DNA of 64,000 nucleotides from positions 1 to 64,000 of the forward strand of contig CAWBKB010000003.1 in assembly GCA_963789265.1 (NCBI GenBank), written 5' to 3'. Of this stretch, positions 17,426-49,378 are shown piece after piece. The notes under the pieces were generated by a model. It was given only the letters and a program-made list of their open reading frames with translations. It was not told the DNA's origin and made no database searches. Each line of letters begins with the position of its first letter. The stretch's first letter is position 1. This DNA comes from an uncultured delta proteobacterium. GTDB lineage: Bacteria; Desulfobacterota; Desulfomonilia; Desulfomonilales; Desulfomonilaceae. A program made the position numbers and the translations under genes.

Positions 17426-17518
17426 AGATGCCGGTCCTGGTGTTCTCTCTGAACCGGCAGGATGCCGGTCCTACTCGTGCCAGGGCAGGCATCGAGCCAC
17501 AGGTGGTCGGGTTCAGGG

Positions 17519-29300: not shown

Positions 29301-29325
29301 CCCGATTGCTCCTAGTCCTTCTAAA

Positions 29326-30933: not shown

Positions 30934-30944
30934 TCCTCCGTGTC

Positions 30945-32867
30945 CTATCTCAGGACGAGATAACCTATTACCACCACGGCTCCTACGAGAATTGAAAGGG
31001 CGTAATCCTTGACAAGGCCGGTCTCGATCTCCCGTAGATAAGCGCCTCCACCTCGAACTAAGCGAGCCACGCCGTTAACGATTCCGTCAATGACCGCATC
31101 GTCAAAACCTTTCCAAAGCAGCCGTGAAAAGCTCACGATAGAGTTGACGAAGAGGAAATCGTACAACTCGTCTATCCAATACTTGTTGTACACAAGCCTG
31201 TGCAACCCGCTGAAGCGTTTGACCATTCTGTCCGCAAGAGAAGGCTCGATGAGGTACATTCGACGTGCCAGAATAAGGCCGGCTAAGGCTATGGCGAGCG
31301 CCACCCCCATAAGAACTAACTCCATGGTTACAGGGGAGTGCTCCAGATGGTGAGCCCTATTCAGGATTGTCTGGGCCGGGGCAAATACAGGTGCCAGAAA
31401 ATTCCCGAAACGCTGCCCACCTTCCCAGACAGGAACTCCTATGAATCCTCCCACAAGTGATAGAAAGGCCAGGATCATGAGAGGAATCGTCATAATAGGC
31501 GGGGATTCATGCAAATGGTGCGCGGTCTCGGGATCCACCCTCGATTTTCCCCAGAAAGTCATGCACATCGACCGGAACATATAGAAAGAGGTCATCAGGG
31601 CAGCTACAGCCCCAATAATCCAGAAGCCGACATGCCGATGCAGCGAGTAAAGAAGGATTTCGTCTTTGCTGAAGAAACCTGCGAACGGAACGATGCCGGC
31701 TATGGCCAGAGTACCGAAAAGATAAGTCCAGTGCGTGTGCGGCAATTGCCTTCGGAGGCCGCCCATCTTGCGCATATCCAATTCTCCGGACATGGCATGC
31801 ATGACGCTGCCCGCGGCAAGAAACAAGAGGGCTTTGAAGAATGCGTGGGTCATGAGATGAAAGATGCCCGAGGCAAATGCTCCCACGCCGCACGCCATGA
31901 ACATGTATCCCAATTGGCTGATAGTAGAATAGGCCAGCACGCGCTTGATGTCGAATTGAGTCATGCCTATGGTAGCTGCATAGAATGCCGTAGCCCCTCC
32001 GACGATCGCCACTACTGTCATAGAGGTTGGCGCCAGGGCGAACAACACGCTGCAACGAGCCACCATATAGACGCCCGCGGTCACCATGGTTGCAGCATGG
32101 ATTAAGGCACTAACCGGTGTCGGACCTTCCATCGCGTCGGGAAGCCACGTGTACAGAGGTATTTGCGCGGACTTTCCGGTAGCTCCGACGAAGAGCAATA
32201 ATGTGATGAGTGTTGCCAAAGTCCCGCCCGCGGCGAGTTTCTCCGGAGCAGCGGCAAAGACTTGGGTAAAGTTGAAGGTACCGAAAGTTACAAAAATGAG
32301 GAACATTCCAATGAGAAACCCAAAATCTCCTACCCGGTTTACGACAAACGCTTTCTTACCCGCGTCCGAAGCGGACTGCTTCTCATAGTAATAGCCGATC
32401 AAAAGATACGAGCAGAGACCGACCCCTTCCCAGCCCACGAACATCAAGAGGAAGTTGTTGGCAGTCACAAGGATCAGCATATTGAAGACAAAGAGATTCA
32501 GGTAAGCGAAAAAGCGGCGGAAACCTATCTCTCCGTGCATATATCCAATTGAATAGATGTGGATAATGCACCCCACGCCGCTTACCACCATCATCATCAC
32601 CATACTGAGCGGGTCAACGAGAAAACCTATGGGAACGGTCAAATTGCCCGACAACATCCACGTGTACATTATCTTCTGGAACGATCGAGATGCAGGAGGT
32701 GTCCCGAGAAGCTCAAGAAATATCAGCAGAGCCACAACAAAGGAAGCGCCCACCGAAACGGCCCCAATCCAACCTATGGCCTTCTCTGAAAAGCGTTTTC
32801 CTATAAGCCCGTTGATCAGGAATCCCAGCAGAGGAAACGAGGGTATTAGCCAGACCAGATCAGTCAT
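30945..32867 (-). CDS. nuoL: NADH-quinone oxidoreductase subunit L
   Basis: [33 protein letters not shown] and HAFFKALLF. Confidence 0.97.
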
Positions 32868-33111
32868 TCCAAGCTCCCGATTCGCGTTCGACGATAGAAG
32901 GTTCCGCTTTCACGTAAAGCATCTGACACATCAATCCTTAGTACTCAGTTTCTCAAATTCGGTCACGTATGCCGATTTGCCTAATGCCCGTACCGGAACT
33001 CTCTTCCGGTAGAACCGGCCTCCCCGCGTCCCGCGGGGTGCTTATGATTCGCCGGCAGGGACGCCGGCGCTACTGTGTAAGTGGCACCGTACTTGTGAAA
33101 CGCAGCACCGG

Positions 33112-33414
33112 TTACCATTTCATCAAGTTGATGTCATTGACGTCGACGGTTCCTTTCATCCTGAAGATGGCAACGGCAACGGCCAGTCCTACGGCCACCT
33201 CAGCCGCGGCGATAACCATGACAAACAGGACGAATATCTGCCCTTCGATTGAGCCCAGATAATGGGAGAAGGCCACAAACGTCAGGTTGACAGAGTTCAG
33301 CATCAGTTCCAGAGACATCAGAATGATAATCAGATTTCTACGAAACATCACTCCAATGACTCCCAGGCAGAAAAGAATCGCGGACAAAAACAGATAATGT
33401 TGTAAAGTGACCAT
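33112..33414 (-). CDS. nuoK: NADH-quinone oxidoreductase subunit K
   Basis: [21 protein letters not shown]. Confidence 0.96.
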
Positions 33415-33474
33415 TTGAGAATTCCTGAGAAAGATATAGAGTCTGTACCCGAGGACGAGCTTCTTTCAGTCTCT

Positions 33475-33975
33475 TCAAGACCTCTTCCGTGCCAGGATCA
33501 CCGTGCCGATAATTGCGGCCAGGAGCAAGATCGAGGCTATCTCGAACGGGAGGAGGTACGTGGTGAAGAGTGCCTTGGCAATGATCTGAGTATTGGACAT
33601 TTGGACGGCCTTTTCCGCGGCTGCCTTTCCCGAGGGTACAAAAACTTTCAGAATCGGGACCAGCAGCACCAGCACAACCACGGCCAAAGCAACACCTATC
33701 CACGAACGCAAAGCTCTTGGATCAATAGGCAGCCGCACCTGGTCCAGGTTAAGCAACATGATCACAAAGAGGAAGAGCACCATTACAGCTCCGGCATACA
33801 CGATGAGCTGCACCATGGCCACAAACTCTGCCTGAAGCAGGATGAATAGTCCTGCAAGGCCGATCATCGTTAGGATCATGAAAAGAACATTGTGCATGGG
33901 TCTCCGAAGGAAAACCACAAAGAAGGCTGATGCCACTGTGATGGCGCTTAAGATGTAGAAAATCAGAGCTTCCAT
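33475..33975 (-). CDS. nuoJ: NADH-quinone oxidoreductase subunit J
   Basis: AEFVAMVQLIVYAGAVMVLFLFVIM and YLLPFEIASILLL. Confidence 0.96.
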   Translation of the reverse strand: MEALIFYILSAITVASAFFVVFLRRPMHNVLFMILTMIGLAGLFILLQAEFVAMVQLIVYAGAVMVLFLFVIMLLNLDQVRLPIDPRALRSWIGVALAVVVLVLLVPILKVFVPSGKAAAEKAVQMSNTQIIAKALFTTYLLPFEIASILLLAAIIGTVILARKRS

Positions 33976-34050
33976 GGATGTTCCAAAACCTCCGCCGGTG
34001 AAGTTGGATCTACCGGCAATCACATCTGTTTAGGCTGACACGCCTGTTTT

Positions 34051-34500
34051 TCAGCCCGCCTTCTTCTTGGAGACGTACCTCGGTTCAGGAGGCTCGAGCA
34101 GCATTTCTTTGGTAAAGATGAGATCCTCCCGGCTGTATTCCGACAGCTCGTAAGCTGTGGTCATTTCTATGGCTTCTTTGGGGCAGACTTCCACACAAAA
34201 TCCACAGAATATGCACCGCCCCAGATCGAGGACGTAGCTCTCGGGATATTTTCTGTTATCGGGCTCCGCCGCTGCCTCGATCGTGATGCACTCCGCCGGG
34301 CAGACTGTGGCACAGAGCATGCACGCCACACATCGTATCTTTCCGGAGGGATGTTTGGTCAATACATGGCGGCCTCTCCACCTCGGTGCCACGTTCCATT
34401 TCTCATCCGGATATTGCAGGGTGACCTTCTTGGAGAAAAAGTAACTCAGCGTGAGTTTCAATCCCTGAATCAACGGGAGAATCATCTCGTGCAACCTCAT
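34051..34500 (-). CDS. nuoI: NADH-quinone oxidoreductase subunit I
   Basis: TLQYP, RWRG and two CxxCxxCxxxCP motifs. Confidence 0.96.
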   Translation of the reverse strand: MRLHEMILPLIQGLKLTLSYFFSKKVTLQYPDEKWNVAPRWRGRHVLTKHPSGKIRCVACMLCATVCPAECITIEAAAEPDNRKYPESYVLDLGRCIFCGFCVEVCPKEAIEMTTAYELSEYSREDLIFTKEMLLEPPEPRYVSKKKAG

Positions 34501-34607
34501 CGATTTATCGGGTCTTGAAGGATTCAACTTCAGGGCCTCATTTTCGGATCCGCTTCTTCCACCGACTTGTGCCGGAGCACGGCCTCACTGCACAAAGAGG
34601 CGGACTC

Positions 34608-35642
34608 TCAGTGTGTATACTGGAGCCAGACAGTGTAAATGAACGCAGTTGCCATTACATTGAACAGCCCGGCAGGCAGCAGCACCTTCCATCCAAAGGT
34701 CATTACCCTGTCATAACGAAGTCTCGGATAAGTGCCGCGAATCCAAACGAACACGAACACAAAGAAAAACATTTTAGCCATGAACCAGAAAATGGGGGGC
34801 AGGAATGGACCTTGCCATCCCCCGAAATACAAGGTGGTCATAAGTGCGCTCAAAAAGAGCAAGTGTGCGTATTCGCCCAGGTAAAATAAACCGAACTTCA
34901 TGGAACTATACTCGGTCTGATAACCCGCTACGAGTTCATTTTCACACTCTATGAGGTCAAACGGGGTCCGAGCGATTTCAGCGCTGCCGGCTATCATGAA
35001 CAAGATAAAACCAAGCGGCTGACGGAAGACATACCACTTCAAGATCGTGTCCTGGGCCTGAACGATTTGCACCAGACTGAGTGAACCCGCCAACAGCAGC
35101 ACGCCCACCACGGAAAGGCTGAGTCCTAGTTCGTAACTTATCATCTGAGCACTGGAACGGATTGAACCCAACAGTGAGTATTTGCTGTTTGAAGCCCACC
35201 CGCCGAGCACAACGCCGTAAACGCCCAGCGATGAAATGGCAAAAATATACAGTATCCCTACATTCAGGTCGGAGACTACTCCTTGATTGAGGCCGTACTT
35301 GGAGGCTAGCGGTCCTAGAATGCTTTCCAAGCCCAAGCCTTTGGCAAAGGGGATAACTCCAAAGGGTATCAAAGCGCAGACAACTACGATCAAGGGAGCG
35401 GCGAGGTAGATCATCCTGTTGGCGCCGGATACGGTGATTTCCTCTTTCATGAAGAGCTTGACCCCGTCCGCCAGCGGCTGAAGGAGACCCCAGGGGCCAA
35501 CTCGGTTGGGACCGATCCTAACCTGGATCCAACCGAGGACTTTACGTTCAATCAGCGTCAGGTATGCCACGAAGGTCAAGACTGCTCCGATGACAAGCAG
35601 TACCTTCACGACAACCAGGATGATAGGGAGGGCGGATTCCAT
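34608..35642 (-). CDS. nuoH: NADH-quinone oxidoreductase subunit H
   Basis: ERK..GPNRVG..QPLADGVKL, AQMISYE, RTPFD and PRLRYD. Confidence 0.97.
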   Translation of the reverse strand: MESALPIILVVVKVLLVIGAVLTFVAYLTLIERKVLGWIQVRIGPNRVGPWGLLQPLADGVKLFMKEEITVSGANRMIYLAAPLIVVVCALIPFGVIPFAKGLGLESILGPLASKYGLNQGVVSDLNVGILYIFAISSLGVYGVVLGGWASNSKYSLLGSIRSSAQMISYELGLSLSVVGVLLLAGSLSLVQIVQAQDTILKWYVFRQPLGFILFMIAGSAEIARTPFDLIECENELVAGYQTEYSSMKFGLFYLGEYAHLLFLSALMTTLYFGGWQGPFLPPIFWFMAKMFFFVFVFVWIRGTYPRLRYDRVMTFGWKVLLPAGLFNVMATAFIYTVWLQYTH

Positions 35643-35655: not shown

Positions 35656-38300
35656 TCAGCTTGCTATCTTTTCAACTTTGACTTTGACCACCGGCCGATC
35701 CCAACGGGTAATGCTGTTCAGCTTCCACTCGGGAAAATGTTGTGGGACTATGATGGAACCTTCCAACGCTCGGCGGGACGGTTTCACCTTCACTTGTATG
35801 GAGGTCCCGTCGGCATTGGTAATCTTCACGGTGTCCCCGGCCGTCAACCCCAGCGCCTTGAGATCTTTGGGGCTCATCTCCGCATCGCCGTTCGGGCAGA
35901 CTTCCTTCATTGCAGCGCTCCACTGCGACATCGAGCCTGAATGGAACTTGAGTATTCCCGGAATCAAGTACATAGTCGGCTCATCGGCAAGTGGTCCCTG
36001 AATCGCAGCCGCAGGCATAAATCGTGCCTTGCCGGCAGGGAAGCCCCCCTCGTAGAGAAGCTTCTTGCCGGTATCTTCCGCATCTACGCAGGGCCAATGA
36101 ATGCCTCCATCGGCAATCCGGTCGTAGGACACTCCTCGATAGACATTGACAAGGTCGGCGATCTCTTCCATCACCTGTTCCGGGCCGGCATAAGTCATCG
36201 AGGGTTTGCCCATGAGCGCGGCAAGGGCCGTGAAGATTTCCAGATCGCACTTGCCTCCGGTCGTCTTAAGCGCCGGGCGCAGACGTTGTACGAACCTGTC
36301 CGCGCTGGTATAGGTCCCGATCTTCTCGGCAAAGGAGGCCACCGGCAGGACCGCGTGAGCCATTTTGGCAGTAGAAGTGACGAATAGGTCCTGTACGACA
36401 AGGAACTCCAGCTTGGCCAAGGCCCTTTCGACCTGCGCTCTGTCGGGGTAGGTATCAAGCGGGTTCTCGCCCACAACATAAAGGCTTCTAATCTCACCAC
36501 TCTCAGCCTTTGCAAGGATCTCTGCGGCGCTAAGGCCCCTTTCCTGGGCAATTTAGCATCCCATGCCGCTTCGAACTTCGTTCGGGCAGCTTCATCCGTT
36601 ATGCTGTGGAAACCGGGCAGAAGTTCAGGGACCAAACCCATGTCAATGGCGCCCTGAGAGTTTGCCTTCTCACCAAGGACATGTACTCCGCATGCCTCTT
36701 TCCCGATGCGACCGGTTACAAGCGCCAGGTTCGCCGCTGCTTGAGCCGTTTCAATGTTGTTGCCCAGCCGGTTCATCCCCTGAGTAAGGATGATTGTTGC
36801 ACTTGCCGCTTTGGCATATTCCTCGGCTGCCTCCCGAATGAGGGCCGCATCCAGCCCGGTTAGTTTCGCCACGTTCTCCGGGGTGTAATCGGAAAGCGAG
36901 GCGATGAGATCATCCAAGCCTTCCGTTTTAAGATCCAAGGCTGTCCTGTCATAAAGCCCTTGATCAATGATCCACTTGAGCATGGCATTGGCCACAAGGT
37001 GTTGCGATCCGGGCCTGCTCAGCAGATAGAGACCCGGACGATCTGTAAGCTTGGTCCTCACGGAATCAATGACAATTACTCTCGCTCTGTTGCGGGCAGT
37101 AGCGCTGACCACCTCGTTCTTCGCTACGGGATGAGTCTCTGAAAGATCGGCTCCGATAAGGACAATCACCTGAGCCTTTCCGATCTCGCGAATCGAGTTG
37201 GTGCCGGCCGGGTACCCCAGCGACGGACCCAGCGCATCCACGAGCGCTCGGTATCCAAATCCGCCGGCATGGTCTAGGTGCGGGGTTTCCATGACGGTTC
37301 GGACAAACCGGTTGAAGACATAAGCCTCTTCGTTTGTAAGTCGCTCGGATCCTAACGCCGCTAGGCTCGAAGGGCCGGAAGCACTCTTTATTCTGTTCAG
37401 ACTATTCGCCACAAAGCTCAGCGCCTCGTTCCACTCCACCTCCCGCAACGATCCGTCCTTTCGGATCAAGGGCTTGGTGAGCCTTTCTTCGGAATAGATG
37501 TAAGGCCAACCGTACCGGCCTTTCACGCAAAGGTTTCCTTCGTTGGCACTGGTCGCTGGGGAAGTGACGTACACAATGTTTTTGTCTTTGGTTCCGAGAG
37601 TTAACATACAACCAAGGCTACAGAACGAACACGTGGTGTAAGTTTTCTTCAATTCAAACTCACGGCCGGTCCCCACAAGCCACTTGGAAGAGATCGCTCC
37701 CACAGGACAGATAGATGCACACTGGCCGCAGAATTCGCAATTCAAGGGACGGCCGAAATCAGTGGAAACTTCGCACGACATTCCTCTCTCAATGAAGCTC
37801 AACTCGTTTTCACCCTGAATCTCGTCGCAGATGCGCACACACATTCCGCATTTTATGCACAGGTTCATGTTGAACCGGATGAAATGCGATTCATTGTCAA
37901 CGTGGAAGTAGCGAGATTCCCGCGGAAAGGGAAGCTCTGCTATCTCGTATTCATGGACTAGCTCCTGAAGCCGGCAGTTACCCGCAGCGTCACAACTGGG
38001 GCAGAGCAGAGGATGGGACCGCAGGAGCAGTTGGAGCTGCATGCGACGACTTTCGATGAGTTTCGGGGTGTGGGTGGCCACTTCCATTCCGTCACGGGCC
38101 GGGTTGAAACACGCGGGCATGGTACGGGTGCGGCCCCGGGCAGTAACCTCAACTATGCACAACCGACATGCCCCGTACGGCACGAGTCGCTTATCGTGGC
38201 AGAGGGTCGGAACACGGATTCCGGCTTGTTGAGCGGCCTCCAGAATGGACGCACCGCGTTCGACAGTAACTTCAACGCCGTCGATGGTCAGGGTAACCAT
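35656..38300 (-). CDS. nuoG: NuoG / FdhA-like molybdopterin-fold Fe-S subunit, frameshift near 36540
   Basis: [2Fe-2S] (PTLC..GACRLC..PAC), HxxxCxxCxxxxxC, two ferredoxin-type [4Fe-4S] motifs, CSFCSLGC..C, then molybdopterin-oxidoreductase fold. Confidence 0.88.
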
Positions 38301-38380: not shown

Positions 38381-40177
38381 TTATCTGATCGCTCCGAACC
38401 TGCAATTCATGATGCAGGTACGGCATTTAGTACATTTTTCCGTGTCGATTCGGGCTACCTTCTTCTTTTCCCATATAATGGCCTCGGATGGGCAGTTTCG
38501 ATAGCAGAGGCCGCACATCTTACATTTGTCCTCTATGACCACGAAGTCTATGAGGCTCGGGCAAACCAGCGCGGGACAGTGTTTGTCACGGATATGGGCG
38601 TCGTATTCGTTCCTGAAATAGCGAATCGTAGAGAGAACCGGGTTCGCCGCACTCTTCCCGAGTCCGCAATGCGAAGTGCCGTTGATATGGTGGCCCAGCT
38701 CGATGAGAAACTCCACATCTCCTTCTTGTCCTCTGCCCTCCACTATATCTGTCAGCTTTTCAAGCATCACCTTCAGGCCTTCGCGGCACGGAACGCACTT
38801 TCCGCAGGATTCTTCCACCGAGAAATCGGTAAAAAACCGTGCAGTATCTACCATGCACGTGTGGTCATCCATGACCACGACCCCGCCGGACCCCATCATA
38901 GCTCCCACGCCGGTCAAGGATTCGTAATCAATTTCGACGTCCTCCATGCCCGTGGGGATACAGCCCCCGGATGGTCCGCCTATCTGCGCTGCCTTGAACT
39001 TCCGTTTCTTGGGGATGCCTCCCCCGATATCGAAGATCAGGCTTTTCAATGAGGTCCCCATGGGGACTTCAACCAGGCCAACATTATTGACCGCGCCGGT
39101 GAGCGCAAAGACCTTTGTGCCTTTGCTTCCTTCGGTGCCGATGGACGCGAACCATTCTGCACCATGAAGTATGATGGGGTTGATGTTGGCGAAGGTTTCG
39201 ACATTGTTAAGGTTCGTAGGCTGATTCCACAGGCCCGCTTCCGCGCTGCGTGGAGGTTTGATGCGAGGCATGCCCCGTTTGCCTTCAATGGAGTACATCA
39301 GGGCCGTGGATTCGCCACAGACAAACGCGCCCGCACCGGGGTAGATTTCAATGTCGAAATTGAAGCCCTTGTCGAGGATATCGGTCCCCAGGAGTCCGTA
39401 ACCGCGAGCATCGTTAATGGCCTTCTGGAGCCGCTGAATGGCAAGCGGATACTCGGCCCGCACGTAGATGTATCCTTTTTCCGCTCCGATGGCGTATCCC
39501 GAAATAGCCATTCCTTCCAGCACTGAATGGGGATCGCCTTCCATCACAGAGCGGTCCATAAAGGCTCCCGGGTCTCCTTCGTCGCCATTGCATATCGTGA
39601 ATTTCGGGAAACTTTCGTATCGGCGGCACTCTTCCCATTTCAGCCCGGTGGGGAACCCTCCGCCCCCGCGACCCCTTAGTCCCGACTTTTTGACCTCCTC
39701 GATGACCGCTTCGGGAGTCATTTCTTCGAGGACTTTGGCCAATGCCGCATATCCGTCCCGAGCGATGTATTCGTCAATGTTTTCAGCGTCTATAAGGCCG
39801 CGGTTGCGAAGCACTGTCAATCTTTGCAGGCCAAAGAAGCCTATGTCCTTCATCAGAGGGACGCGGTCTTTGGCCATCTCTTCCTTGAAAAGGAGTTGCT
39901 CTACAATTCTACCTTTGAGCACGTGCTCTTCGACAATAAGAGGCGCGTGTTCCGGCTTAACCTGGTTGTAGAAAATGCCTTCCGGATAAACCACGACCAA
40001 AGGGCCCATTGCGCAAAAGCCGTTGCACCCGGTCATGATTATCTGCACTTCGTCCTGGAGGTTCCTTTTTGCCAATTCTTTTTCAAGCGCTTCTCTCACT
40101 TCCAAAGAACCACTGGCCATGCATCCTGTGCCTGCGCACATCATGAACTGCATTCTATAAAAAGGGCTGGCACTCAT
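38381..40177 (-). CDS. nuoF: Long NuoF (HydB/HndC-type) flavoprotein subunit
   Basis: N-terminal thioredoxin-like [2Fe-2S] domain, SGLRGRGGGGFPTG, DEGDPGAFMDR, GGPSG, SCGKCVPCR..C and C-terminal 2x[4Fe-4S]. Confidence 0.95.
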   Translation of the reverse strand: MSASPFYRMQFMMCAGTGCMASGSLEVREALEKELAKRNLQDEVQIIMTGCNGFCAMGPLVVVYPEGIFYNQVKPEHAPLIVEEHVLKGRIVEQLLFKEEMAKDRVPLMKDIGFFGLQRLTVLRNRGLIDAENIDEYIARDGYAALAKVLEEMTPEAVIEEVKKSGLRGRGGGGFPTGLKWEECRRYESFPKFTICNGDEGDPGAFMDRSVMEGDPHSVLEGMAISGYAIGAEKGYIYVRAEYPLAIQRLQKAINDARGYGLLGTDILDKGFNFDIEIYPGAGAFVCGESTALMYSIEGKRGMPRIKPPRSAEAGLWNQPTNLNNVETFANINPIILHGAEWFASIGTEGSKGTKVFALTGAVNNVGLVEVPMGTSLKSLIFDIGGGIPKKRKFKAAQIGGPSGGCIPTGMEDVEIDYESLTGVGAMMGSGGVVVMDDHTCMVDTARFFTDFSVEESCGKCVPCREGLKVMLEKLTDIVEGRGQEGDVEFLIELGHHINGTSHCGLGKSAANPVLSTIRYFRNEYDAHIRDKHCPALVCPSLIDFVVIEDKCKMCGLCYRNCPSEAIIWEKKKVARIDTEKCTKCRTCIMNCRFGAIR

Positions 40178-40704: not shown

Positions 40705-41221
40705 TTATTGATAGCCTTCAAGTATCTTCACCGTGTCTGTCGGATTAATGTTACCGTGGGTATCCTCTCCTATCAGCATGACCGGGGCCAGACCGCAGGC
40801 CCCCAAACACCGTACTGCCTCAAGAGTGAATCTGCCGTCCTCGGAGGTTTCGCCAACATTAATGCCGACCTCTTTTACTATGTTCTCCAGGATCTCTTTC
40901 GAGCCTTTGACATAGCAGGCGGTTCCCAGGCACAGACGGATGGTATGCCTCCCTCTCGGGGTGATAGTAAAGAACGAATAGAAGGTCACAACACCATAAA
41001 TGTGAGATGAAGGAATATGCAAGCCGTCCGCTAACTTTCGCTGGACCTCCATGGGAAGATATCCGTACAAATCCTGAGCCTCTTTGAGAGCAGGGATAAG
41101 ATATCCGGCCCGACCTCCGGTACTTGTCTATGATCCCACCGAGTTTCTCCAGCTCTTCAGGCGGCAGAATCTCAACCTGCGGTTCATCTTTCTTCTTTAG
41201 TATCGAGTCTCGTTCTTGCAC
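40705..41221 (-). CDS. nuoE: NuoE (HydC/HndA-type) [2Fe-2S] subunit, frameshift near 41115
   Basis: YGVVTFYSFF, CLGTAC and CLGACGLAP; GTG start at 41221. Confidence 0.92.
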
Positions 41222-41257: not shown

Positions 41258-41803
41258 TCACTCGGAAGCGATCTCACGGAGTCCCGAAAGAATATTGTCC
41301 CGGATGAGTCCTATAATCTGGGGGTTGTTAATCGGGATCTCTTCCAGCTCCAAGCGTATCTCCCTTGTATCCAGGGTGTACTCTTTGCCATCTTTCTTAT
41401 GTGTGTAAACCAAATCAACTGCCGGATTGCCCTCAATCAGGGCAAGAAGCGTATCTACCATGTCGCCCATGGGCTTCCGGTCGATATGTTTATGACTCAT
41501 GAAAACCGACACCTTCGTTCCGTGTCCAGGGATGGAATCCACCTTGAGATCGCCCTCGGCTTCTCGTGCGGCCTGTTGAAACAATGACAGCCCGAGTCCC
41601 ACTTTGCGAGTGGTACGCGTCGTGGTGAAAGGATCAAGGACTTTGGCCAAGAATTCCGGGTCCATGCCACGACCGTTATCTTCGATGATTATCGTCAGCC
41701 TGTCGTCTCGCCGATTCTCCTCTATGGTTATGTTGATCAGATCGGCCCCGGCTCTCACCCCGTTTTCGGCCACGTCCAGAATGTGCAGAGAGAGATCCTG
41801 CAT
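41258..41803 (-). CDS. Stand-alone HATPase_c (histidine-kinase-like ATPase)
   Basis: N-box DVAENG, G1 DNGRG, F-box DPF and G2 GLGLS. Confidence 0.9.
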   Translation of the reverse strand: MQDLSLHILDVAENGVRAGADLINITIEENRRDDRLTIIIEDNGRGMDPEFLAKVLDPFTTTRTTRKVGLGLSLFQQAAREAEGDLKVDSIPGHGTKVSVFMSHKHIDRKPMGDMVDTLLALIEGNPAVDLVYTHKKDGKEYTLDTREIRLELEEIPINNPQIIGLIRDNILSGLREIASE

Positions 41804-41842
41804 GCCTAATGTTCAGTATACGGATCGAAATTTCTGAAAGCG

Positions 41843-42661
41843 TTACGGTCCGTCGCCCATTGTTTTCAGTTCCAGTATCCTTCTGCCCCCGCGATTGCCC
41901 AAGGCATTTCTGAACTCGTCAAAACTGGCTTCGGCGAGCATCGCCAAGGTCATCGCGGCACCCACATCTTCGAGGCAATGGGCATCGGACGAAGCGATCA
42001 TCGGGTAATCAGCGCACTGAGGGTATCTTGCCCGGAGCTTCTCGATGCCGGCTCTTTTCGAGATTTCCAGTGCGTCGAGTTGCAGCCCCTCCGGGACAAA
42101 TCCCAATTGGCCGAAGATCCCGAATCCCGCTCTATCCACATGAGATGCGATAGCCAGACCTCGATTATCGTGGACCAAGCGGACGACCTTTTCTGCGCTC
42201 AGAGTCGTGGCCCCTATGAGGAGCCTTTCGTCAAGGTCTTCTACTTGGTCATATTCATCTACTACCGCCTGGCAGCCGAACACGATTTCGTCATTCTGCC
42301 CGAAAAGCCTGGCGTAAACCTCTTCCTGGACGGCTTCGACATCCGAATCGGACGAAAACAGGCCCAAAATGTGAACTTCTTCCGAGGTGGTAATTTCCAT
42401 CCCCGGAAGAACCGTCAACCCGGTCCCTTCTGCTGCCCGCCTGGTGGCGGCCGCATTCCTCGCAGAGTTGTGATCGCAAACAGCGATCATGTCGAGGCTT
42501 TTGTCCAGAGCCGCCCGCACAATAGCCCGCGGTGTCATCTCCGCTATTTCGGTGCAGGGAGACAATACCGTATGAATGTGTAGGTCAAGCTTGTAAAGCT
42601 TAAGATCGACCTGCCAACCTCTTTTGCCTTTGGCCGCAATTCCCGGCTCTTTATCAAACAA
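41843..42661 (-). CDS. PHP-domain metal-dependent phosphoesterase (true start probably about 50 nt downstream)
   Basis: DLHIH, DHN, E..H, SH and SSDAH motifs. Confidence 0.9.
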   Translation of the reverse strand: MFDKEPGIAAKGKRGWQVDLKLYKLDLHIHTVLSPCTEIAEMTPRAIVRAALDKSLDMIAVCDHNSARNAAATRRAAEGTGLTVLPGMEITTSEEVHILGLFSSDSDVEAVQEEVYARLFGQNDEIVFGCQAVVDEYDQVEDLDERLLIGATTLSAEKVVRLVHDNRGLAIASHVDRAGFGIFGQLGFVPEGLQLDALEISKRAGIEKLRARYPQCADYPMIASSDAHCLEDVGAAMTLAMLAEASFDEFRNALGNRGGRRILELKTMGDGP

Positions 42662-42717
42662 GGGCGGGGAAGCCGAGTATTGATTTGCATTCCTGATTCC
42701 ACAGCAATCCTTGCGTC

Positions 42718-43062
42718 TCAGGATATGCGGCGAACCCCCATCTCATATAGTTTGCCTGCCAACTCGTAAGTCGGCATGGAACTTACCAGAATCGGGACAC
42801 CCTGCTCTTCGGCTTTCTTCAGGGTGTCGGGCTCCGGCTCGCGGCCGCCCACAATAACTATCCCTGCCAGGTTGTTCAGGAACGCAACCGCCACGATGTT
42901 CTGATGGAGCTGTAGTGTGATCCAGAGATCACCTTCTCTGGAACCGGCGATCACATCGCTGAGAAGGTCGCTCACATATCCGCCTTCCACAATACGGCCC
43001 ATGTCAAGGCGACCTGTCCTGATTTCCAGCCCCAAAGCATCCGCTACTTCTCCCAGGGTCAT
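42718..43062 (-). CDS. DRTGG-domain protein (HPr kinase N-terminal-like)
   Basis: GGYVSDLLSDV..LWIT..NIVAVA. Confidence 0.85.
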   Translation of the reverse strand: MTLGEVADALGLEIRTGRLDMGRIVEGGYVSDLLSDVIAGSREGDLWITLQLHQNIVAVAFLNNLAGIVIVGGREPEPDTLKKAEEQGVPILVSSMPTYELAGKLYEMGVRRIS

Positions 43063-43084
43063 GAATGGCTCCCCAACCCGTCGG

Positions 43085-44284
43085 CTATCGGTCGACTTCC
43101 GCCAAAACGATATCCACACTGGAGAGTATCGCAATCAAATCGGAAAAAAAGTATCCCTTGCCCATCCGTGGGAGGGATTCAAGATTCACGAACGCAGGTG
43201 CCCGCCATTTGAGTCGATACGGCCTGGGGCCGCCGTCGCTGACTATGTAGCAGCCAAGTTCACCCCGTGGAGATTCAATACATTGGTAAACTTCGCCGAC
43301 AGGCGGCTTCAACCCTTCCACTACGAGCATGAAATGATGGATGAGTGATTCCATCTTGGTGTAAATATCTTCTTGAGGCGGAAAAATCACTCCAGGCTTT
43401 TGCGCCCGCACAGGGCCATAGGGCAGCCTGTCCAAAGTCTGGCGCAGTATGCGATTGCTCTGCCTCATCTCCGCGACCCGGACCAGATATCGTGAGTACA
43501 CGTCGCAGCCGGTCTCGACCGGTACATCGAAGTCGTAATATTCGTACCCACAGTATGGTTCCCGCTTCCTGATGTCCCAGGCCAACCCGGAAGCCCGGAC
43601 CATCGGGCCGCTTGCCCCCAGAGCGATGGCCTCTTCAAGAGGCAGTATCCCGATGCCCTTTGTCCGGTCCATGTAGATAACGTTCTTTGTGAGCAGAGTT
43701 TCGTACTCGTCCACCCTTCGATCGAAGTGCTCGGTGAACGAGCGCAGCCGGTCGACAAATCCTTCTTCCAAATCTCGTATGAGCCCGCCGATCCTCAGAT
43801 AGTTCGGCATGAGGCGGCCACCTGCCGTGAGTTCGAAGAGATTCATAATCTCTTCGCGTTCTCTGAGCATATAGAACATCGGCGTCATTGCGCCGACGTC
43901 GTGCCCATGCGTGCCCAGCCAAAAGAGATGGCTGAAAATGCGGGACAACTCGGCCATCATCACCCGTATGACCTGAGCTCTTTCCGGGACGTCCACGCCG
44001 AGGAGTTTTTCCACAGCCAGGCAATAAGCGAGAGAATTGCTGGATGCTCCCATATAATCGCAACGCTCCGCCAGCGGGATCACCTGGTGGTAGTGTTTGT
44101 TCTCGCAGGTCTTCTCATAACCCCTGTGTAGATATCCCAGGTGCGGCACCACATCTACAACTAGCTCGCCATCGAGCTCGACTACGGCTCGGAACACTCC
44201 GTGAGTGCTGGGATGATGAGGTCCTAGATTTAGTTCCAGGAGTTCGCTACTGAAATTGAGTTTTGGGCTCACTTGTTCGCTCAT
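43085..44284 (-). CDS. nuoD: NADH-quinone oxidoreductase subunit D
   Basis: GPHHPSTHGV, GYLHRG, RCDY, ESPRGE and DIVLAEVDR. No NiFe-binding CxxC pairs. Confidence 0.96.
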   Translation of the reverse strand: MSEQVSPKLNFSSELLELNLGPHHPSTHGVFRAVVELDGELVVDVVPHLGYLHRGYEKTCENKHYHQVIPLAERCDYMGASSNSLAYCLAVEKLLGVDVPERAQVIRVMMAELSRIFSHLFWLGTHGHDVGAMTPMFYMLREREEIMNLFELTAGGRLMPNYLRIGGLIRDLEEGFVDRLRSFTEHFDRRVDEYETLLTKNVIYMDRTKGIGILPLEEAIALGASGPMVRASGLAWDIRKREPYCGYEYYDFDVPVETGCDVYSRYLVRVAEMRQSNRILRQTLDRLPYGPVRAQKPGVIFPPQEDIYTKMESLIHHFMLVVEGLKPPVGEVYQCIESPRGELGCYIVSDGGPRPYRLKWRAPAFVNLESLPRMGKGYFFSDLIAILSSVDIVLAEVDR

Positions 44285-44309
44285 GAGCTGTTTTCCTCGG
44301 GGTCCGCTC

Positions 44310-44807
44310 CTATGCGGGCAAGTCGGGAGTATCTTCTTCGGTTCCGTACAGAGGGAAGTCTTTCCTTAGAGGATGAACGGTCCATCCTTCCGGAAGGAGG
44401 AGCTTCCGTGGATCGGGGTGGTTCTTAAAGGTTATGCCGAACATTTCGGCCGTTTCTCTCTCGTGCCAGTTAGCCGTAGGCCAGATGGGCACCACCGAAT
44501 CAATCGATGGTTCACTTTCAGCCGTATCTTCCAGCAGCGCCTTTATTCGAAATCGGTGATTGTGTTTCAGGGAATGGAGTTGGTAAACAACCTCGAAACG
44601 GGGGGTCTTCGGATACCTGTCCACTGCACCTACAAATGAGAGGAAGTCGAAGGACAGCTCGGGATCTTCTTTCAGATAACGGCAGACATCCAGGATCTTT
44701 TCCATCGTTACCGTCAAGCTGATCTGATCGCGAAATTCGACCGCGGTCTGTATTGTATCCGGTCCAAACTGGGCCAGAACCTTCTCTTTAATGTCTTCCT
44801 GTTTCAT
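44310..44807 (-). CDS. nuoC: NADH-quinone oxidoreductase subunit C
   Basis: [23 protein letters not shown]. Confidence 0.96.
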
Positions 44808-45313
44808 CTAGCGGCTGCCTTGATGCTTGTTACACGGGGATTGTGGATGGACTGCTCCTTCAGGACCTTGGCGTGAAGCTGTAAAATTCCGTCCACCAAT
44901 GCCTCGGGTTTGGGAGGGCAGCCAGGGATGTAGACATCCACCGGGAGGTGGCGGTCGATGCCTTGCACCACGGCGTAATTCTTGTAGATACCGCCGGTAC
45001 ACGCGCAAGCCCCCATGGCAATCACCCAGCGGGGTTCTGCCATTTGCTCATAGATTCTGAGTACCGCGGGGAGCATCTTCTTGGAGGCAGTACCGGAAAC
45101 TATCATCAGATCCGCATGCCGTGGAGAAGGTCGGAACACTTCCATGCCGAACCGGGAGAGATCGTACCGGCTGACAACCGTGGCTATCATCTCGAGAGCG
45201 CAGCATGCTAAGCCGAAACCCAGCGGCCACATGGATGACTTGCGCGCCCAGTTGACGAACCATTCGAGGTTGGTGACGTGAACGGTGTCGTTGAGATGTC
45301 CTTTTATTCCCAT
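44804..45313 (-). CDS. nuoB: NADH-quinone oxidoreductase subunit B
   Basis: [20 protein letters not shown] and IPGCPP; start overlaps the nuoA stop. Confidence 0.96.
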
Positions 45314-45660
45314 TCCAATGCACCTTTTTTCCAAACATAAACGAGGCCCAAGAGGAGAACCACCACGAACACGAACATCTCCGCGAAGCCAAACATCTTC
45401 AACTGGTCGTAAATGGTCGCCCAGGGAAATAGGAAGATCAGTTCGATGTCGAAGACGATGAAGAGCATCCCCATTACAAAGAATCGGACTGAAAATCGTC
45501 GTCTCGCGCTTCCTATGGGATCCATACCGCATTCATACGGCATCAACTTGATCGGTGTAGGGTTTCTCCCGGCCAAAAGCGTGGAAAGCACAATAATAGC
45601 CAGGCCTATGAATGCGGATATCAGCAAAATCACCAGGATGGGAAGGTAGCTGTTGGTCAT
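45304..45660 (-). CDS. nuoA: NADH-quinone oxidoreductase subunit A
   Basis: PYECG, FDIE and KKGALEW. Confidence 0.96.
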
Positions 45661-45812
45661 ACCTCTTCTCCGGCTCCAAGCGCCTGCTTCCTGAAAACAG
45701 GAACCCCGACGCGATATTTATTAGTGACTATGATGGCTGATACGGAGAGGCATCCGATGAAGGGCCTACGTAACCGTAACATGCCCTTGTTACAGCCCGC
45801 CTGGCAAAGTTG

Positions 45813-46775
45813 TCAAGGTTTTTTTCCCGCTCTTCTCGTCGCCCCCGGGAGAGTATCTCCGAAAAGAAAAGCTATGTCAAGCCTGGTTCCGGCTCCGGGT
45901 TCAGACACGAGCCTCATCGTGTCCGAGCATCTTTTAATATTAGCCAAGCCCATGCCGGCACCGAATCCCATGTCTCGAATCCATTCCGGAGCGGTGGAGA
46001 AGCCCGGCTGAAGAACTTGTTGCAGGTTATCTATTCCGGGGCCGTGGTCAACTGCGGACACCATTAGCCGACCCTGACGAATTTCTACAGTTATTTCCCC
46101 GCCCACGTCAGTGTGTATAACGAGATTCATCTCGGCCTCGTATACCGCCACAGCGACTCTTCTCACCAGAGGCGGTAAAAATCCGAGCCGTTGAAGAGAT
46201 TTCTTGATCATGCTGGATGCCTTGCCCGCATTGGCAAAATCTTTGTCATTCACTATGTAACGCAAAGTGACGCTTGTATCGTCGGACTCGATGTCCTCGA
46301 ATATGTGGCTTGCGCGGTATGTTTGCAGCTTCTCGGCTTCCTTCTTCTGAAAGCTCACGTCCATTTCACGCAGAAGCGCCCTAATCACTGTGCCCGTGGT
46401 AAGGATGCCCACCAGTTTCCCGTCTCCGTCCACCACAGGCAATCTCGCGAATCCATGTCCGCCGAGATTGCTCAGGGCCTCCGTCAGGGACGCGTCCTTC
46501 GATACGGTCTTAACCTCCCGCGTCATGTTATCCGCGGCCCGCGTGCTCAGCAGCCCTTTTTCCATCGCGTCGATCACGTCGGTCATGCTCAGGATGCCGA
46601 CGATTCGGTCTCCATCAAGCACCGGCGCACCGGTAATGCGCTTGGCCCGCATCAACTCCTTCACATCGGCCATAGACATGGAGGGGTCGATCACGATGAC
46701 GTTCGGCGCCATGACGCTTTCCACTCTTGTGGTGTAAATCAACTCCTGAACTTTGGTGATTTCCTGGATAGTCAT
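45813..46775 (-). CDS. CBS-pair plus RsbT/RsbW-like Ser/Thr kinase (HATPase) fusion
   Basis: Two CBS domains, then YEAEMN, DHGPGI, GFSTA and GFGAGMGL. Confidence 0.9.
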   Translation of the reverse strand: MTIQEITKVQELIYTTRVESVMAPNVIVIDPSMSMADVKELMRAKRITGAPVLDGDRIVGILSMTDVIDAMEKGLLSTRAADNMTREVKTVSKDASLTEALSNLGGHGFARLPVVDGDGKLVGILTTGTVIRALLREMDVSFQKKEAEKLQTYRASHIFEDIESDDTSVTLRYIVNDKDFANAGKASSMIKKSLQRLGFLPPLVRRVAVAVYEAEMNLVIHTDVGGEITVEIRQGRLMVSAVDHGPGIDNLQQVLQPGFSTAPEWIRDMGFGAGMGLANIKRCSDTMRLVSEPGAGTRLDIAFLFGDTLPGATRRAGKKP

Positions 46776-46776
46776 G

Positions 46777-47148
46777 TCACCACGAGTCGTTTTGTATTTG
46801 TACCTGCCCGAGCCCCGGCAGCCCTGCTTTGAAGAGACGGCCGCAGGCCTCGTACATCGTATAACCTGTGTTGATAATCGTTATATTGGACTCACGCGCC
46901 AGTTCCACAGTTTCGGGAGGCGGAGTCTTGTCCCGCACGAACACGATCACGTTTATGCCCGCCATTTCTGCGGTGCGAACGACTTGGGGGTTGGTCAGAC
47001 CTGTCATGAGCACCATGCCTTCAGTGCCGAACGCGAGAACATCACTCATGAGGTCCGCTGCGCCGCCCCTCGGGACCTCCTCATCCAGACCATGATTTTC
47101 TACGAGGATCCGCCCTGATAGTATCTCCACCAGTTCCCGGATTTTCAT
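46777..47148 (-). CDS. DRTGG-domain protein
   Basis: ADLMSDVLA..TGLTNPQVVRTAEM..YEACGRL. Confidence 0.88.
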   Translation of the reverse strand: MKIRELVEILSGRILVENHGLDEEVPRGGAADLMSDVLAFGTEGMVLMTGLTNPQVVRTAEMAGINVIVFVRDKTPPPETVELARESNITIINTGYTMYEACGRLFKAGLPGLGQVQIQNDSW

Positions 47149-47521: not shown

Positions 47522-49378
47522 GTGAACAACATGCTCTATTCGGGTGACAAACCGAATCCGCACCTTAATTCATTCGTCATGGACCACGCCCGGAGCCGGT
47601 CCTTTGATTCCAACAGCGACAGTTATGTGGTACAGGAGTTTGCCTCTCCTATAAAAACTACGAAGAACTCGCCCATTTACAGCATGCATTCGTACCACCT
47701 GGGGAAAAAGCCGCATGATGCGGTGGAAGCTTACATCAAGCATTACACGTCAGCGGGTGATCTCGTGCTGGACCCATTTTGCGGGTCGGGCAGCACAGCT
47801 TTGGCTGCACTCGTGCAAGGCAGAAAGGCGATAGCCATAGATGCCTCGCCGGCTGCTACGTTCATCACTCGCTTCTACATTTCGCGATCCGATCCGACGG
47901 ACCTGGCCGACCGTTTTCAGCGAATGTGCGCCGCGGTGAGCGAAGAGATGAAATACCTTTACGGAACCGTCTGTCACCACTGCAACTCTTCGGCCACCAT
48001 CCATTATGCGATTTATTCAAACCTGTATGAATGTCCGTCGTGCTCCAGGCGCGTGTCCCTATATGAAGCCGGCCGGCACAATCCCCCGTGCTGCCCGTGG
48101 TGCCTCTCCGAACACGGACTCTTCCAACCTATTTCTCCATTCCTCAGGACTCACGGCTATGAGCCTGTGGCAGTAAATTTTTCATGCCACGGCTCCTGTA
48201 AGCCGAAGCGGATGACCCGCTCGATCTTGGGGTCGGCAAAAGATCGCGAAGCATTTCAAGGTATAGATGTTCCTCGAATTCGAGAAATAGAGGCTGCTCC
48301 TGTTACTTACCCTTATCCGAACCGGTTCATGATGAACGTCGCGGACCCAAACATTCCCTGGGGTGACGAATGGCGCCCCAGTCGAAACTTCAGACGGGTT
48401 GCGGATCTCTTCACCTGCAGAAATCTCAGAGCAGTTGCCGCGTTCATGCAGGCAGCCGGTTCAGATGAAGATCTTCGCGCGATAATCACGTCGGGTATGT
48501 TTGCAGTGAGCCGAAAGGCCCAGCATCTTGATGAAGGCGGCGGATATGTGCCGGGTAACTGGGCTTTGCCCCCCATGTCCAAGCAGCGCAACTGTATGGA
48601 AAGCCTTAGTAGAATCTTCGCTCGCATTTTGACCGCCAAGAAAATCCTCAACACGCGATTACAATCGCAAGACGCGTGCATTTCCACTCAATCCGCAACT
48701 TCATTGGCTCAGATCCCGTCCGATTCGGTGGATTATATTTTCACCGATCCGCCGTACGGTGGAACGGTTCAGTATGGCGAACTGAACTTCATCTGGGAGT
48801 CGTGGTTGGGCTTGAATACGGAGTGGCACGATCAAGAGATCGTTGTGAATCGTACCCGTGGGAAGTCGTTGCAGGACTGGGCGGAAATGATGTTCCTCGC
48901 GATAGGGGAATGCTACCGTGTGCTGAAGCCCGGCCGGTGTCTCTCACTCTGCTGGCACGATGCCTCAGCCTCAACCTGGCGCCACCTGCAAAACATCATG
49001 GCCGGAGTGGGGTTCACTGTGGAGCAATCCGACCGCGCGCTGTACATTGATACCGGTTCCAATACATACAATCAGCGAGTAACCGACAAGGTGGTGAGGC
49101 GCGATCTGGTCATAAATTTTCGGAAGCCGCGGCCTGGGGAATCAGATCGCGATGCCTTGGCAGTCAGAACAACCTCGACCCCTTTTCACGTCAGAGCCCG
49201 CCTCATTATCACAGATTATTTGAAAGCTCATCCGGGATCGCCCAAAGACAGAATATACGATCACCTTATGTGCAAACTCATCAGAACAGGTCCAGTAGAA
49301 GACCACGACTTCGGCAAGCTCCTGTCGCAGATCGCTATAAAAGCCGGTGATGGCAGAAATGCGTGGTTTTTGATGTAA
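47522..49378 (+). CDS. Orphan N6-adenine/N4-cytosine DNA methyltransferase with a Cys-rich insertion
   Basis: Motif I VLDPFCGSG precedes motif IV FTDPPY; RVLKPG; several CxxC pairs lie between the motifs. Confidence 0.9.
   Translation: MNNMLYSGDKPNPHLNSFVMDHARSRSFDSNSDSYVVQEFASPIKTTKNSPIYSMHSYHLGKKPHDAVEAYIKHYTSAGDLVLDPFCGSGSTALAALVQGRKAIAIDASPAATFITRFYISRSDPTDLADRFQRMCAAVSEEMKYLYGTVCHHCNSSATIHYAIYSNLYECPSCSRRVSLYEAGRHNPPCCPWCLSEHGLFQPISPFLRTHGYEPVAVNFSCHGSCKPKRMTRSILGSAKDREAFQGIDVPRIREIEAAPVTYPYPNRFMMNVADPNIPWGDEWRPSRNFRRVADLFTCRNLRAVAAFMQAAGSDEDLRAIITSGMFAVSRKAQHLDEGGGYVPGNWALPPMSKQRNCMESLSRIFARILTAKKILNTRLQSQDACISTQSATSLAQIPSDSVDYIFTDPPYGGTVQYGELNFIWESWLGLNTEWHDQEIVVNRTRGKSLQDWAEMMFLAIGECYRVLKPGRCLSLCWHDASASTWRHLQNIMAGVGFTVEQSDRALYIDTGSNTYNQRVTDKVVRRDLVINFRKPRPGESDRDALAVRTTSTPFHVRARLIITDYLKAHPGSPKDRIYDHLMCKLIRTGPVEDHDFGKLLSQIAIKAGDGRNAWFLM

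Follow-up and report, generated by a model that had tools for sequence, protein, structure and literature searches.

The window analysed here, a stretch of 64,000 nucleotides from an uncultured delta proteobacterium of the family Desulfomonilaceae (contig CAWBKB010000003.1, positions 1 to 64,000), carries a complex I (nuo) operon that contains five genes of signalling type. These encode two small DRTGG proteins, a CBS-CBS-GHKL protein with a kinase-like ATPase domain, a PHP-domain phosphoesterase and a small two-domain GHKL ATPase. The analysis establishes the anatomy and conservation of this gene set, the intact ATP- and metal-binding residues of its proteins, and its link to a hydrogenase-type (Bfu-type) flavoprotein head rather than to complex I in general. 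We propose, with a rough probability of 0.55, that these genes represent a conserved accessory cassette in the version with a CBS sensor, that this cassette is tied to the HydBC/Bfu-type NuoE-HndB-NuoF head, and that it forms a putative ATP-dependent switch on that head. Such a switch would be post-translational, built from two DRTGG-GHKL pairs and reset by the PHP enzyme, and its ligand input would be exchangeable, namely the CBS pair here and a HydS-like protein elsewhere. The chemistry, at a guess, would be serine phosphorylation at the invariant Ser35 of the DRTGG proteins.

The cassette and its complex I operon

Annotation with Pfam and NCBIfam places all five genes in a single minus-strand 14-gene nuo operon that runs from ~47148 to 28026. 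The gene order is DRTGG1, CBS-CBS-GHKL (hereafter the CBS-kinase), nuoABCD, DRTGG2, PHP, the small ATPase (HATPase), nuoE, an HndB-like gene, nuoF, nuoG and nuoH-N, and the five genes are co-directional with nuoA-D (45660-43085) and with every later gene of the operon. The features are the following.

46777-47148, minus: DRTGG1, 123 residues from the Met at 47148, a start placed by comparison with relatives (open reading frame to 47178); Pfam PF07085, E 3.1e-6
45813-46775, minus: CBS-CBS-GHKL protein, 320 residues, with a SpoIIAB/RsbW-type ATPase domain; CBS 2.4e-28, HATPase_c_2 1.9e-8
43085-45660, minus: nuoA, nuoB, nuoC and nuoD, between cassette genes 2 and 3; Pfam Oxidored_q4, Oxidored_q6, Complex1_30kDa, Complex1_49kDa
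42718-43062, minus: DRTGG2, paralogue of DRTGG1, ~114 residues from the Met at 43062 (the open reading frame has 138, and homology to relatives starts at residue ~25); Pfam PF07085, E 1.9e-7
41843-42661, minus: PHP-domain phosphoesterase, up to 272 residues, start uncertain; Pfam PHP 6.6e-7, PHP_C 5.8e-8
41258-41803, minus: small two-domain GHKL ATPase (HATPase), 181 residues; Pfam HATPase_c 6.1e-18, HATPase_c_3 5.3e-8
40705-41221, minus: nuoE, HydC/BfuC type; Pfam 2Fe-2S_thioredx 5e-44 on an open reading frame of 121 residues
40250-40636, minus: HndB-like small thioredoxin-like ferredoxin, 128 residues; zero Pfam matches, weak NCBIfam 2Fe-2S ferredoxin match below cut-off (E 4.3e-7)
38381-40177, minus: nuoF, HydB/BfuB type; Pfam Complex1_51K, NADH_4Fe-4S, 2Fe-2S_thioredx (residues 4-84), Fer4 x2 (546-597)
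35656-38300, minus: nuoG, formate-dehydrogenase-like molybdopterin type; Pfam on two open reading frames
28026-35642, minus: nuoH, I, J, K, L, M and N; Pfam

The raw open reading frames are separated by 1 nucleotide between DRTGG1 and the CBS-kinase, 152 between the CBS-kinase and nuoA, 56 and 39 within the second block, and 187 between HATPase and nuoE. With corrected starts for DRTGG2 (43062) and nuoE (41221), the gaps between nuoD and DRTGG2 and between HATPase and nuoE are ~22 and ~36 nucleotides, respectively. An earlier note, made from the letters of the window, had described these genes as co-directional, closely spaced and bracketing nuoABCD, with no H-cluster protein in the window, and both descriptions hold. 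The absence of the H-cluster domain (PF02906) extends beyond the window: the genome (6.06 Mb; completeness 95.57%, contamination 6.07%) gave zero matches in a search that was positive in Thermotoga and Bacteroides control genomes.

What kind of complex I carries the cassette? The window NuoF has an extra N-terminal thioredoxin-like 2Fe-2S domain and a C-terminal 2x[4Fe-4S] domain, and is thus of the HydB/BfuB type. The source genome holds 7 NuoF-like genes, 2 NuoD genes and 2 nuo operons, of which the second is a canonical nuoA-N operon located ~0.9 Mb away on the same contig (locus L184, about 909200-923600). This operon contains no cassette gene, and its NuoF aligns just to residues 133-539 of the window NuoF. 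For this reason, the cassette tracks the hydrogenase-type head and not complex I as such. The window also holds the only small DRTGG genes of the genome and its only HATPase homologue (E <= 1e-12). One of the five further NuoF-like genes sits within an open frame of 1054 residues.

A complex I of this composition has a precedent. In the text of Schut et al. 2022 (PMC9304861), 'Nuo-Bfu' denotes a 14-subunit complex I with a BfuABC (HydABC-type) head. The window operon resembles Nuo-Bfu, as presented there, in having all 14 nuo genes in one co-directional cluster (45660 to 28026) and a NuoF with HydB-type extra iron-sulfur domains, and differs from it in two genes added before nuoA, three between nuoD and nuoE, and the HndB-like gene. 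Electron confurcation or bifurcation between NAD(P)H, ferredoxin and quinone is a trait of Nuo-Bfu that the window complex may share. The words 'kinase', 'phosphatase' and 'CBS' are absent from the text of that article, and Desulfomonile is not named in one of its supplementary files.

Close relatives of the CBS-kinase in public records belong to Desulfomonilaceae, to Desulfomonile and to metagenome-assembled genomes labelled 'delta proteobacterium'. Among 40 related genomes searched, a full-length homologue with 65-97% identity is present in most of the 24 that belong to the same family; the exceptions are G006 with CBS-only matches, G007 with a fragment and G024 with a split gene. The exact gene order of the window recurs in all of the same-family loci fetched (18/18), and each of these 18 has the HndB-like gene between nuoE and nuoF. 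The split of the cassette around nuoABCD is fixed across the Desulfomonilaceae, and the five-gene arrangement is not due to chance.

Distribution and variants of the cassette

The public comparison set consisted of the 80 best CBS-kinase loci, with one genome per species. The CBS-kinase is directly followed by nuoBCD in 22 of them, and these are exactly the loci whose kinase has 63-97% identity to that of the window. The remaining 58, with 44-54% kinase identity, are mostly from Anaerolineae/Chloroflexota, with some from Planctomycetota, Myxococcales and others. DRTGG1 lies immediately upstream of the CBS-kinase in 72 of the 74 loci that leave room to see it. Where at least 4.5 kb of downstream sequence is available (57 loci), DRTGG2 is directly adjacent to the CBS-kinase in 34, nuoBCD comes next in 18, and neither is found in 5. 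The resulting 39 non-nuo loci encode PHP (34), HATPase (31), NuoE (34), NuoF (34) and a NuoG-like protein (33), and their typical order is DRTGG, CBS-kinase, DRTGG, PHP, NuoE, HATPase, HndB and NuoF. As to the co-occurrence of the CBS-kinase with nuo or with hydrogenase operons, which the earlier note had proposed to analyse, nuoBCD comes next in 22/80 loci, tblastn located an H-cluster in 0/80, and 39/57 loci are not nuo loci.

Pfam annotation of 29 downstream proteins from 8 of the non-nuo loci identified NuoF-GltD fusions, formate-dehydrogenase-like molybdopterin subunits, Nfn-like proteins, and a NuoG-like subunit followed by a [NiFe]-hydrogenase small subunit. These are enzyme types that the text of Schut et al. 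(PMC9304861) groups as the Bfu family. The cassette belongs with the hydrogenase-type NuoE-HndB-NuoF module, whichever enzyme that module feeds. In the Desulfomonilaceae that enzyme is a second complex I, of the 'Nuo-Bfu' type, into which the module feeds electrons as its head, and the cassette came along with the module. At one Anaerolineae locus (L055) the formate-dehydrogenase-like subunit that follows the cassette is split into 16074-17162 (362 residues) and 17175-18800 (541 residues); the break falls near the beginning of the molybdopterin domain and might reflect an in-frame selenocysteine codon.

A version linked to hydrogenases came to light when 151 genomes of the phylum were sampled; 38 of these genomes have a PF02906 match. 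In one of them (G041) the order is DRTGG, kinase, HydS-like, DRTGG, PHP, HATPase, HndB-like, NuoE, NuoF and HydA, with a divergent radical-SAM/BATS gene beside the cluster. The DRTGG protein has 133 residues, the HATPase_c_2 kinase has 153 and is without CBS domains, and the HydS-like protein has 462 with 2x[4Fe-4S], Fe_hyd_lg_C and 'FeS' domains. The HydS-like gene occupies the slot in which the window kinase has its CBS pair. From this gene order it follows that the gene set does accompany a sensory-type hydrogenase beside a bifurcating one, which corroborates, in one genome of the same phylum, what the earlier note had stated as established. Gene neighbourhoods of putative sensory [FeFe] hydrogenases (HydS) beside bifurcating hydrogenases have been described (Zheng et al. 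2014 as quoted in PMC5707799; Land et al. 2020, PMC8163306), and the likeness to the window in the passages concerned is a small kinase-like ATPase next to the sensor. The window shares with the HydS-linked cassette two DRTGG genes, a SpoIIAB-like kinase, PHP and a small HATPase beside NuoE/HndB/NuoF; it differs in having no H-cluster protein, in the CBS pair on its kinase, and in serving complex I.

Outside the class, the same 151 genomes have 33 places with a full-length homologue of the small HATPase. A comparison of two result tables puts 14 of the 33 within 6 kb of a PF02906 match, and one of the other 19 (L162) gave a weak HydS-like tblastn match. Of these 19, 7 lie between nuoD and nuoE, 9 are accompanied by NuoE/HndB/NuoF/NuoG-like genes without nuoBCD, and 3 are uninformative or HydS-like. 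Two other families carry a reduced cassette at this place in the nuo operon. In family f26 the order is nuoA-D, a kinase without CBS, one DRTGG, PHP, HATPase and nuoE onwards, with no DRTGG gene found before nuoA. In family f39 the order is nuoB-D, DRTGG, HATPase and nuoE onwards, and kinase and PHP were not found with the queries used. These variants make the cassette look modular, with a DRTGG/kinase pair, a DRTGG/HATPase pair and PHP as its parts.

How did the split arrangement of the Desulfomonilaceae arise? A quick maximum-likelihood tree of 117 kinase domains was built, with Shimodaira-Hasegawa-like approximate likelihood ratio test (SH-aLRT) support only, a midpoint and hence arbitrary root, and long-branch warnings; two of its rows are wrongly labelled, L136 as CBS (Pfam finds no CBS) and L167 as lacking CBS (a split gene). 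The 35 nuo-linked Desulfomonilaceae rows form one clade with 100% SH-aLRT, which nests among CBS-bearing kinases that are mostly from Chloroflexota. A branch with 96% SH-aLRT parts this clade from all CBS-less kinases, including the nuo-linked kinases of f26. For DRTGG2, PHP and HATPase, in contrast, it is f26 that supplies the nearest homologues outside the family, with 57-63%, 51-52% and 51-53% identity, as against 38-53%, 36-49% and 37-58% for Chloroflexota. The Chloroflexota-like kinase clade set against a downstream trio nearest to f26 suggests, as far as sequence relationships can indicate, that the DRTGG1/CBS-kinase pair was acquired separately from DRTGG2, PHP and HATPase.

Properties of the cassette proteins

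The ATPase domain of the CBS-kinase matches PF13581 (HATPase_c_2) with 34.8 bits against a cut-off of 27.4, and the NCBIfam anti-sigma F factor model TIGR01925 with E 4.4e-12, below cut-off. In an alignment of 51 sequences, E213, E215, N217, D243-G-P-G-I and GFGAGMGL are invariant, and a linker ahead of the kinase domain, 'YRASHIF.DI', is strongly conserved. The first CBS domain has an invariant G60 and, with at least 90% conservation, S63 and D66; these positions fit the canonical CBS ribose-binding motif. The best NCBIfam match of the CBS part is a cyclic di-AMP binder, below cut-off, and both the CBS part and DRTGG1 match NCBIfam models of CBS-pyrophosphatases.

SpoIIAB-SpoIIAA-SpoIIE and RsbW-RsbV-RsbU are partner-switching modules. 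The cassette is like them in its components, which come from one gene set: a Ser-kinase-like GHKL domain whose N, G1 and G2 boxes are intact, a small partner protein carrying an invariant Ser, and a phosphoesterase. It differs in that the partner has a DRTGG and not a STAS fold, the phosphoesterase is PHP and not PP2C, the operon has no sigma factor, and there is an extra MutL-like ATPase.

The two DRTGG proteins are paralogues that share an invariant 'D-L-x-S-D-V' with Ser35. In DRTGG1, Ser35 lies in 'GADLMSDV' and is invariant in 49 sequences; in DRTGG2, Y29, D32, L34, S35, W47, T49, H53 and N55 are invariant in 50. The AlphaFold2 model of DRTGG1, with a predicted local distance difference test score (pLDDT) of 94.7, places Ser35 at the start of helix 34-40. 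The top Foldseek matches of this model are AF1212 (template modelling score, TM, 0.77) and the DRTGG domain from the regulatory region of a CBS-pyrophosphatase, 3L2B/3L31 (TM 0.74), which is also matched by sequence with E 0.005; a weaker match is the N-terminal domain of HPr kinase. Entries with STAS or anti-sigma-factor antagonist in their titles are absent among the matches listed, to rank 50. The CBS-DRTGG-CBS regulatory insert of family II (CBS) pyrophosphatase offers a second likeness, a CBS pair together with a superposable DRTGG domain, with the difference that in the window the DRTGG domain and the CBS pair are on two polypeptides from adjacent genes and the output is a kinase-like ATPase and not a pyrophosphatase. 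By analogy, a putative CBS-DRTGG unit in the window may bind AMP, ADP, ATP or diadenosine polyphosphates.

A complex prediction for the CBS-kinase and DRTGG1 gave a score of 0.60, with the best control at 0.01, agreement between runs in at least 95% of contacts and a partner pLDDT of at least 87. Of 157 solved complexes, 116 reach the mark used, as do 2 of 215 mismatched pairs, and a score of 0.60 or less is seen in just 18 of the 157 solved complexes and in both passing mismatches. This modelling result lends weak support to binding of DRTGG1 by the CBS-kinase. The prediction returned no interface, so that a position of DRTGG1 on the CBS pair is not distinguished from one on the kinase domain.

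The PHP protein retains the complete PHP metal-ligand set, with H28, H30, D63, H64, E89, H174, D226 and H228 invariant in 44 sequences. Its nearest solved sequences are 7UG9 (a 5'-3' exoribonuclease) and 3E0F/3O0F (a putative metal-dependent phosphoesterase), and its best NCBIfam matches, all below cut-off, are TrlF-/Ppl-type PHP domains, a 3',5'-bisphosphate nucleotidase and RNase RNM. In the small ATPase the N and G boxes are intact. N14, D42, G44, G46, H106 and D108 are invariant in 50 sequences, and the boxes are followed by an invariant 'H-x-D-R-x-P-x-G' in the same 50. Its AlphaFold2 model (pLDDT 90.7) consists of two domains. Foldseek lays both domains on the N-terminal parts of MutL/PMS2 and topoisomerase VI-B (query-normalised TM, TMq, ~0.5; root-mean-square deviation 5-9 Å), and only the first ~110 residues overlie the catalytic ATP-binding (CA) domains of histidine kinases. 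Because no dimerization/histidine-phosphotransfer (DHp) domain was found in the small ATPase, the label 'kinase' is not established for this protein.

Alternative hypotheses and significance

Several observations weigh against the proposed switch on the Bfu-type head. The DRTGG fold, as modelled, is not a STAS fold, the PHP protein is not the usual partner-switch phosphatase, and the small ATPase in its model resembles a MutL clamp as much as a kinase. In the sister family f2 of the same class, 10 loci contain a bare cassette of DRTGG, a kinase of 154 residues, DRTGG, PHP and HATPase; no NuoE or NuoF was found near the cassette in these 10 loci, and in the 3 of them that were annotated with Pfam the cassette comes after FdhA-FocA or after a carbonic anhydrase. 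A group-3-type [NiFe] hydrogenase adjoins a bare DRTGG/CBS-kinase pair at L062, and a solitary DRTGG-CBS-kinase pair is present in G027. Since the cassette or its DRTGG-kinase pair also stands alone, the target need not be the flavoprotein head. Moreover, the source genome has five other NuoF-type genes outside both nuo operons and no such ATPase (E <= 1e-12) elsewhere, and the cassette is not obligatory for every Bfu-type NuoF. The literature searched yielded no activity, binding or expression data for any cassette protein. Finally, with the single-base frameshifts of nuoE and nuoG described below, function in the source genome is not assured.

The earlier note had gone further and proposed that in this lineage an adenylate-sensing CBS kinase replaced the hydrogen sensor, so that complex I would be switched according to energy charge by Ser/Thr phosphorylation of the DRTGG proteins, NuoE or HndB, and the PHP protein would serve as the protein phosphatase. 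We consider this unlikely. It is in keeping with the presence of a CBS pair on the window kinase and the absence of an H-cluster gene, with the HydS-like gene that G041 has between kinase and DRTGG2 instead, with the fit of G60, S63 and D66 to the ribose-binding motif, with the SpoIIAB/RsbW type of the kinase domain and with the invariant Ser35 of both DRTGG proteins. However, the CBS kinase is not an invention on complex I, as the cassette is contiguous and away from nuoBCD in 34/57 loci and the CBS version is common outside complex I (39/57). The notion of a switch on complex I per se is not supported, given that the cassette follows the HydBC/Bfu NuoE-NuoF module, that the canonical complex I operon of the same genome is without it, and that sensor-less versions exist. 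The position of the window kinase in the quick tree, among Chloroflexota CBS-kinases and across the 96% SH-aLRT branch from the f26 kinases, also means that a sensor swap on complex I itself is not demonstrated. In addition, the best NCBIfam match for the CBS pair, below cut-off, is a cyclic di-AMP binder, and the solved relatives nearest to the PHP protein are an exoribonuclease and a putative phosphoesterase. An alternative hypothesis dispenses with protein phosphorylation: DRTGG1 and the CBS pair would be a split CBS-DRTGG insert that senses a nucleotide or alarmone, the GHKL domains would be ATP-driven clamps, and the PHP protein would degrade the ligand. The structural and sequence match of DRTGG1 to 3L2B/3L31, the CBS-pyrophosphatase models matched by DRTGG1 and the CBS part, and the likeness of PHP to nucleotide phosphoesterases and of the small ATPase to MutL and topoisomerase VI-B all point this way, as does the regulation of the CBS-pyrophosphatase by adenine nucleotides and diadenosine polyphosphates reported in published abstracts. 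This hypothesis is nevertheless doubtful, because DRTGG-kinase pairs occur without any CBS domain in f2 and G041, which makes the kinase domain the more likely partner of DRTGG1, and because the kinase domain retains the ATP-binding boxes of its family, as a true kinase would.

Could the cassette instead build the head? As an assembly or maturation factor and not a regulator, it would load flavin mononucleotide or iron-sulfur clusters, or attach the Bfu-type head to NuoG and the Q-module. The small ATPase is always found among nuoE, hndB and nuoF, its fold is like that of clamp- or chaperone-class GHKL ATPases, and all that the reduced form of f39 retains between nuoD and nuoE is DRTGG2 together with this ATPase; against these points, the five other NuoF-type genes of the genome do without the cassette, and sensor domains such as the CBS pair and the HydS-like protein suit regulation better, so that a role in assembly appears quite unlikely. 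A transcriptional partner switch, with the SpoIIAB-like kinase as an anti-sigma factor and with operon expression, not the enzyme, under the control of the cassette, would account for the likeness to anti-sigma F factor and for the cassette standing alone in f2. We regard it as very unlikely, given that the annotated cassettes showed neither a sigma factor nor a DNA-binding domain beside them, Pfam found no sigma factor in the operon, and the Foldseek search with DRTGG1 found no STAS partner. It is extremely unlikely that the operon is decaying in the source genome and the module idle there. The frameshifts that suggest this, relative to the close relatives G001 and G003, are a 1-nucleotide insertion in nuoE near 41119, which puts the first ~35 codons into another frame, and a 1-nucleotide deletion in a C run of nuoG near 36548, seen in the DNA alignment, which leaves two overlapping open reading frames of 701 and 272 residues. 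The N-terminal part of nuoE is in frame in 10/10 relatives checked, and nuoG of G001 is in frame. Nearby, the gene for formate-tetrahydrofolate ligase likewise falls into two open reading frames (24627-25772 and 25963-26391, minus strand; Pfam FTHFS positions 186-556 and 2-87), likely by another indel or as a broken gene. Nevertheless, all five cassette genes are full length relative to relatives; the single-base indels at short C runs, together with the split ligase, make assembly error a likelier cause than decay, and several related assemblies (loci L015 and L017) show many fragmented matches as well.

The proposed switch on the NuoE-HndB-NuoF head also has a bolder form, which we judge decidedly improbable, in which a ligand-gated, ATP-driven partner switch either couples the head reversibly to the remainder of complex I or silences the head. 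An adenine nucleotide or alarmone would be read by the CBS pair, the kinase would mark Ser35 of the DRTGG proteins, the PHP enzyme would erase the mark, and the pair of DRTGG2 and the MutL-like ATPase would clamp or release the head. If this were true, complex I could toggle between a confurcating input of NAD(P)H and ferredoxin and a head-less state, a post-translational control of complex I of a kind not known in bacteria. The response regulator Rv3143 is encoded upstream of nuo in Mycobacterium tuberculosis. This orphan regulator, likewise a signalling protein, reportedly modulates Nuo through contact between proteins (PMC9274095). It differs from the cassette in being a single gene, in its unrelated protein family and in that the complex I concerned is canonical.

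The cassette occurs beside bifurcating modules in several phyla, its sensor can be exchanged (a CBS pair or a HydS-like protein) or missing, and it is the obvious candidate for the missing signalling partners of bifurcating modules and of 'sensory' hydrogenases. Its presence in the complex I operon of organisms without [FeFe] hydrogenase makes its role separable from hydrogen metabolism. The case is testable, as Desulfomonile is available in culture and the genome has an internal control in its canonical complex I. Nuo-Bfu and the idea of kinases beside sensory hydrogenases are already in print; the CBS version split around nuoABCD, its family-wide fixation, the contrast with the canonical complex I and the hint of a mosaic origin are what the window adds. 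The literature searched yielded no description of the DRTGG/PHP/GHKL cassette, nor of its occurrence in nuo operons; subscription journals and supplements may hold more. The hfsABCD operon was considered as the same cassette and rejected, being a different cluster with a serine-phosphatase homologue.

Scans of the operon for regulatory sites gave little. Between 40000 and 47700 there is 1 promoter-like site against 5.8 expected and there are 8 terminator-like sites against 6.8, which is uninformative on transcription units. A Rex operator consensus, with up to 3 mismatches allowed, has 5 matches in the window against 2.67 expected, and none of them lies between 28 and 48 kb. The longest open reading frame of nuoB (44804-45532, minus strand) overlaps nuoA (45304-45660, minus strand) by 229 nucleotides. 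As the nuoB Pfam domain begins only at residue 110, the true start is probably later; tblastn matches of nuoB in other families nevertheless start at residue 1. Among the f2 loci, L113 and L114 have, at about 1500-2350, a gene for a beta-class carbonic anhydrase that immediately precedes the sensor-less cassette, and L119 has FdhA and a FocA-type formate channel upstream of the cassette and an IcmF-like fused mutase after it. Just upstream of the window operon, on the opposite strand, are two genes with N6/N4 DNA-methylase domains (47522-49378 and 55863-57161, plus strand).

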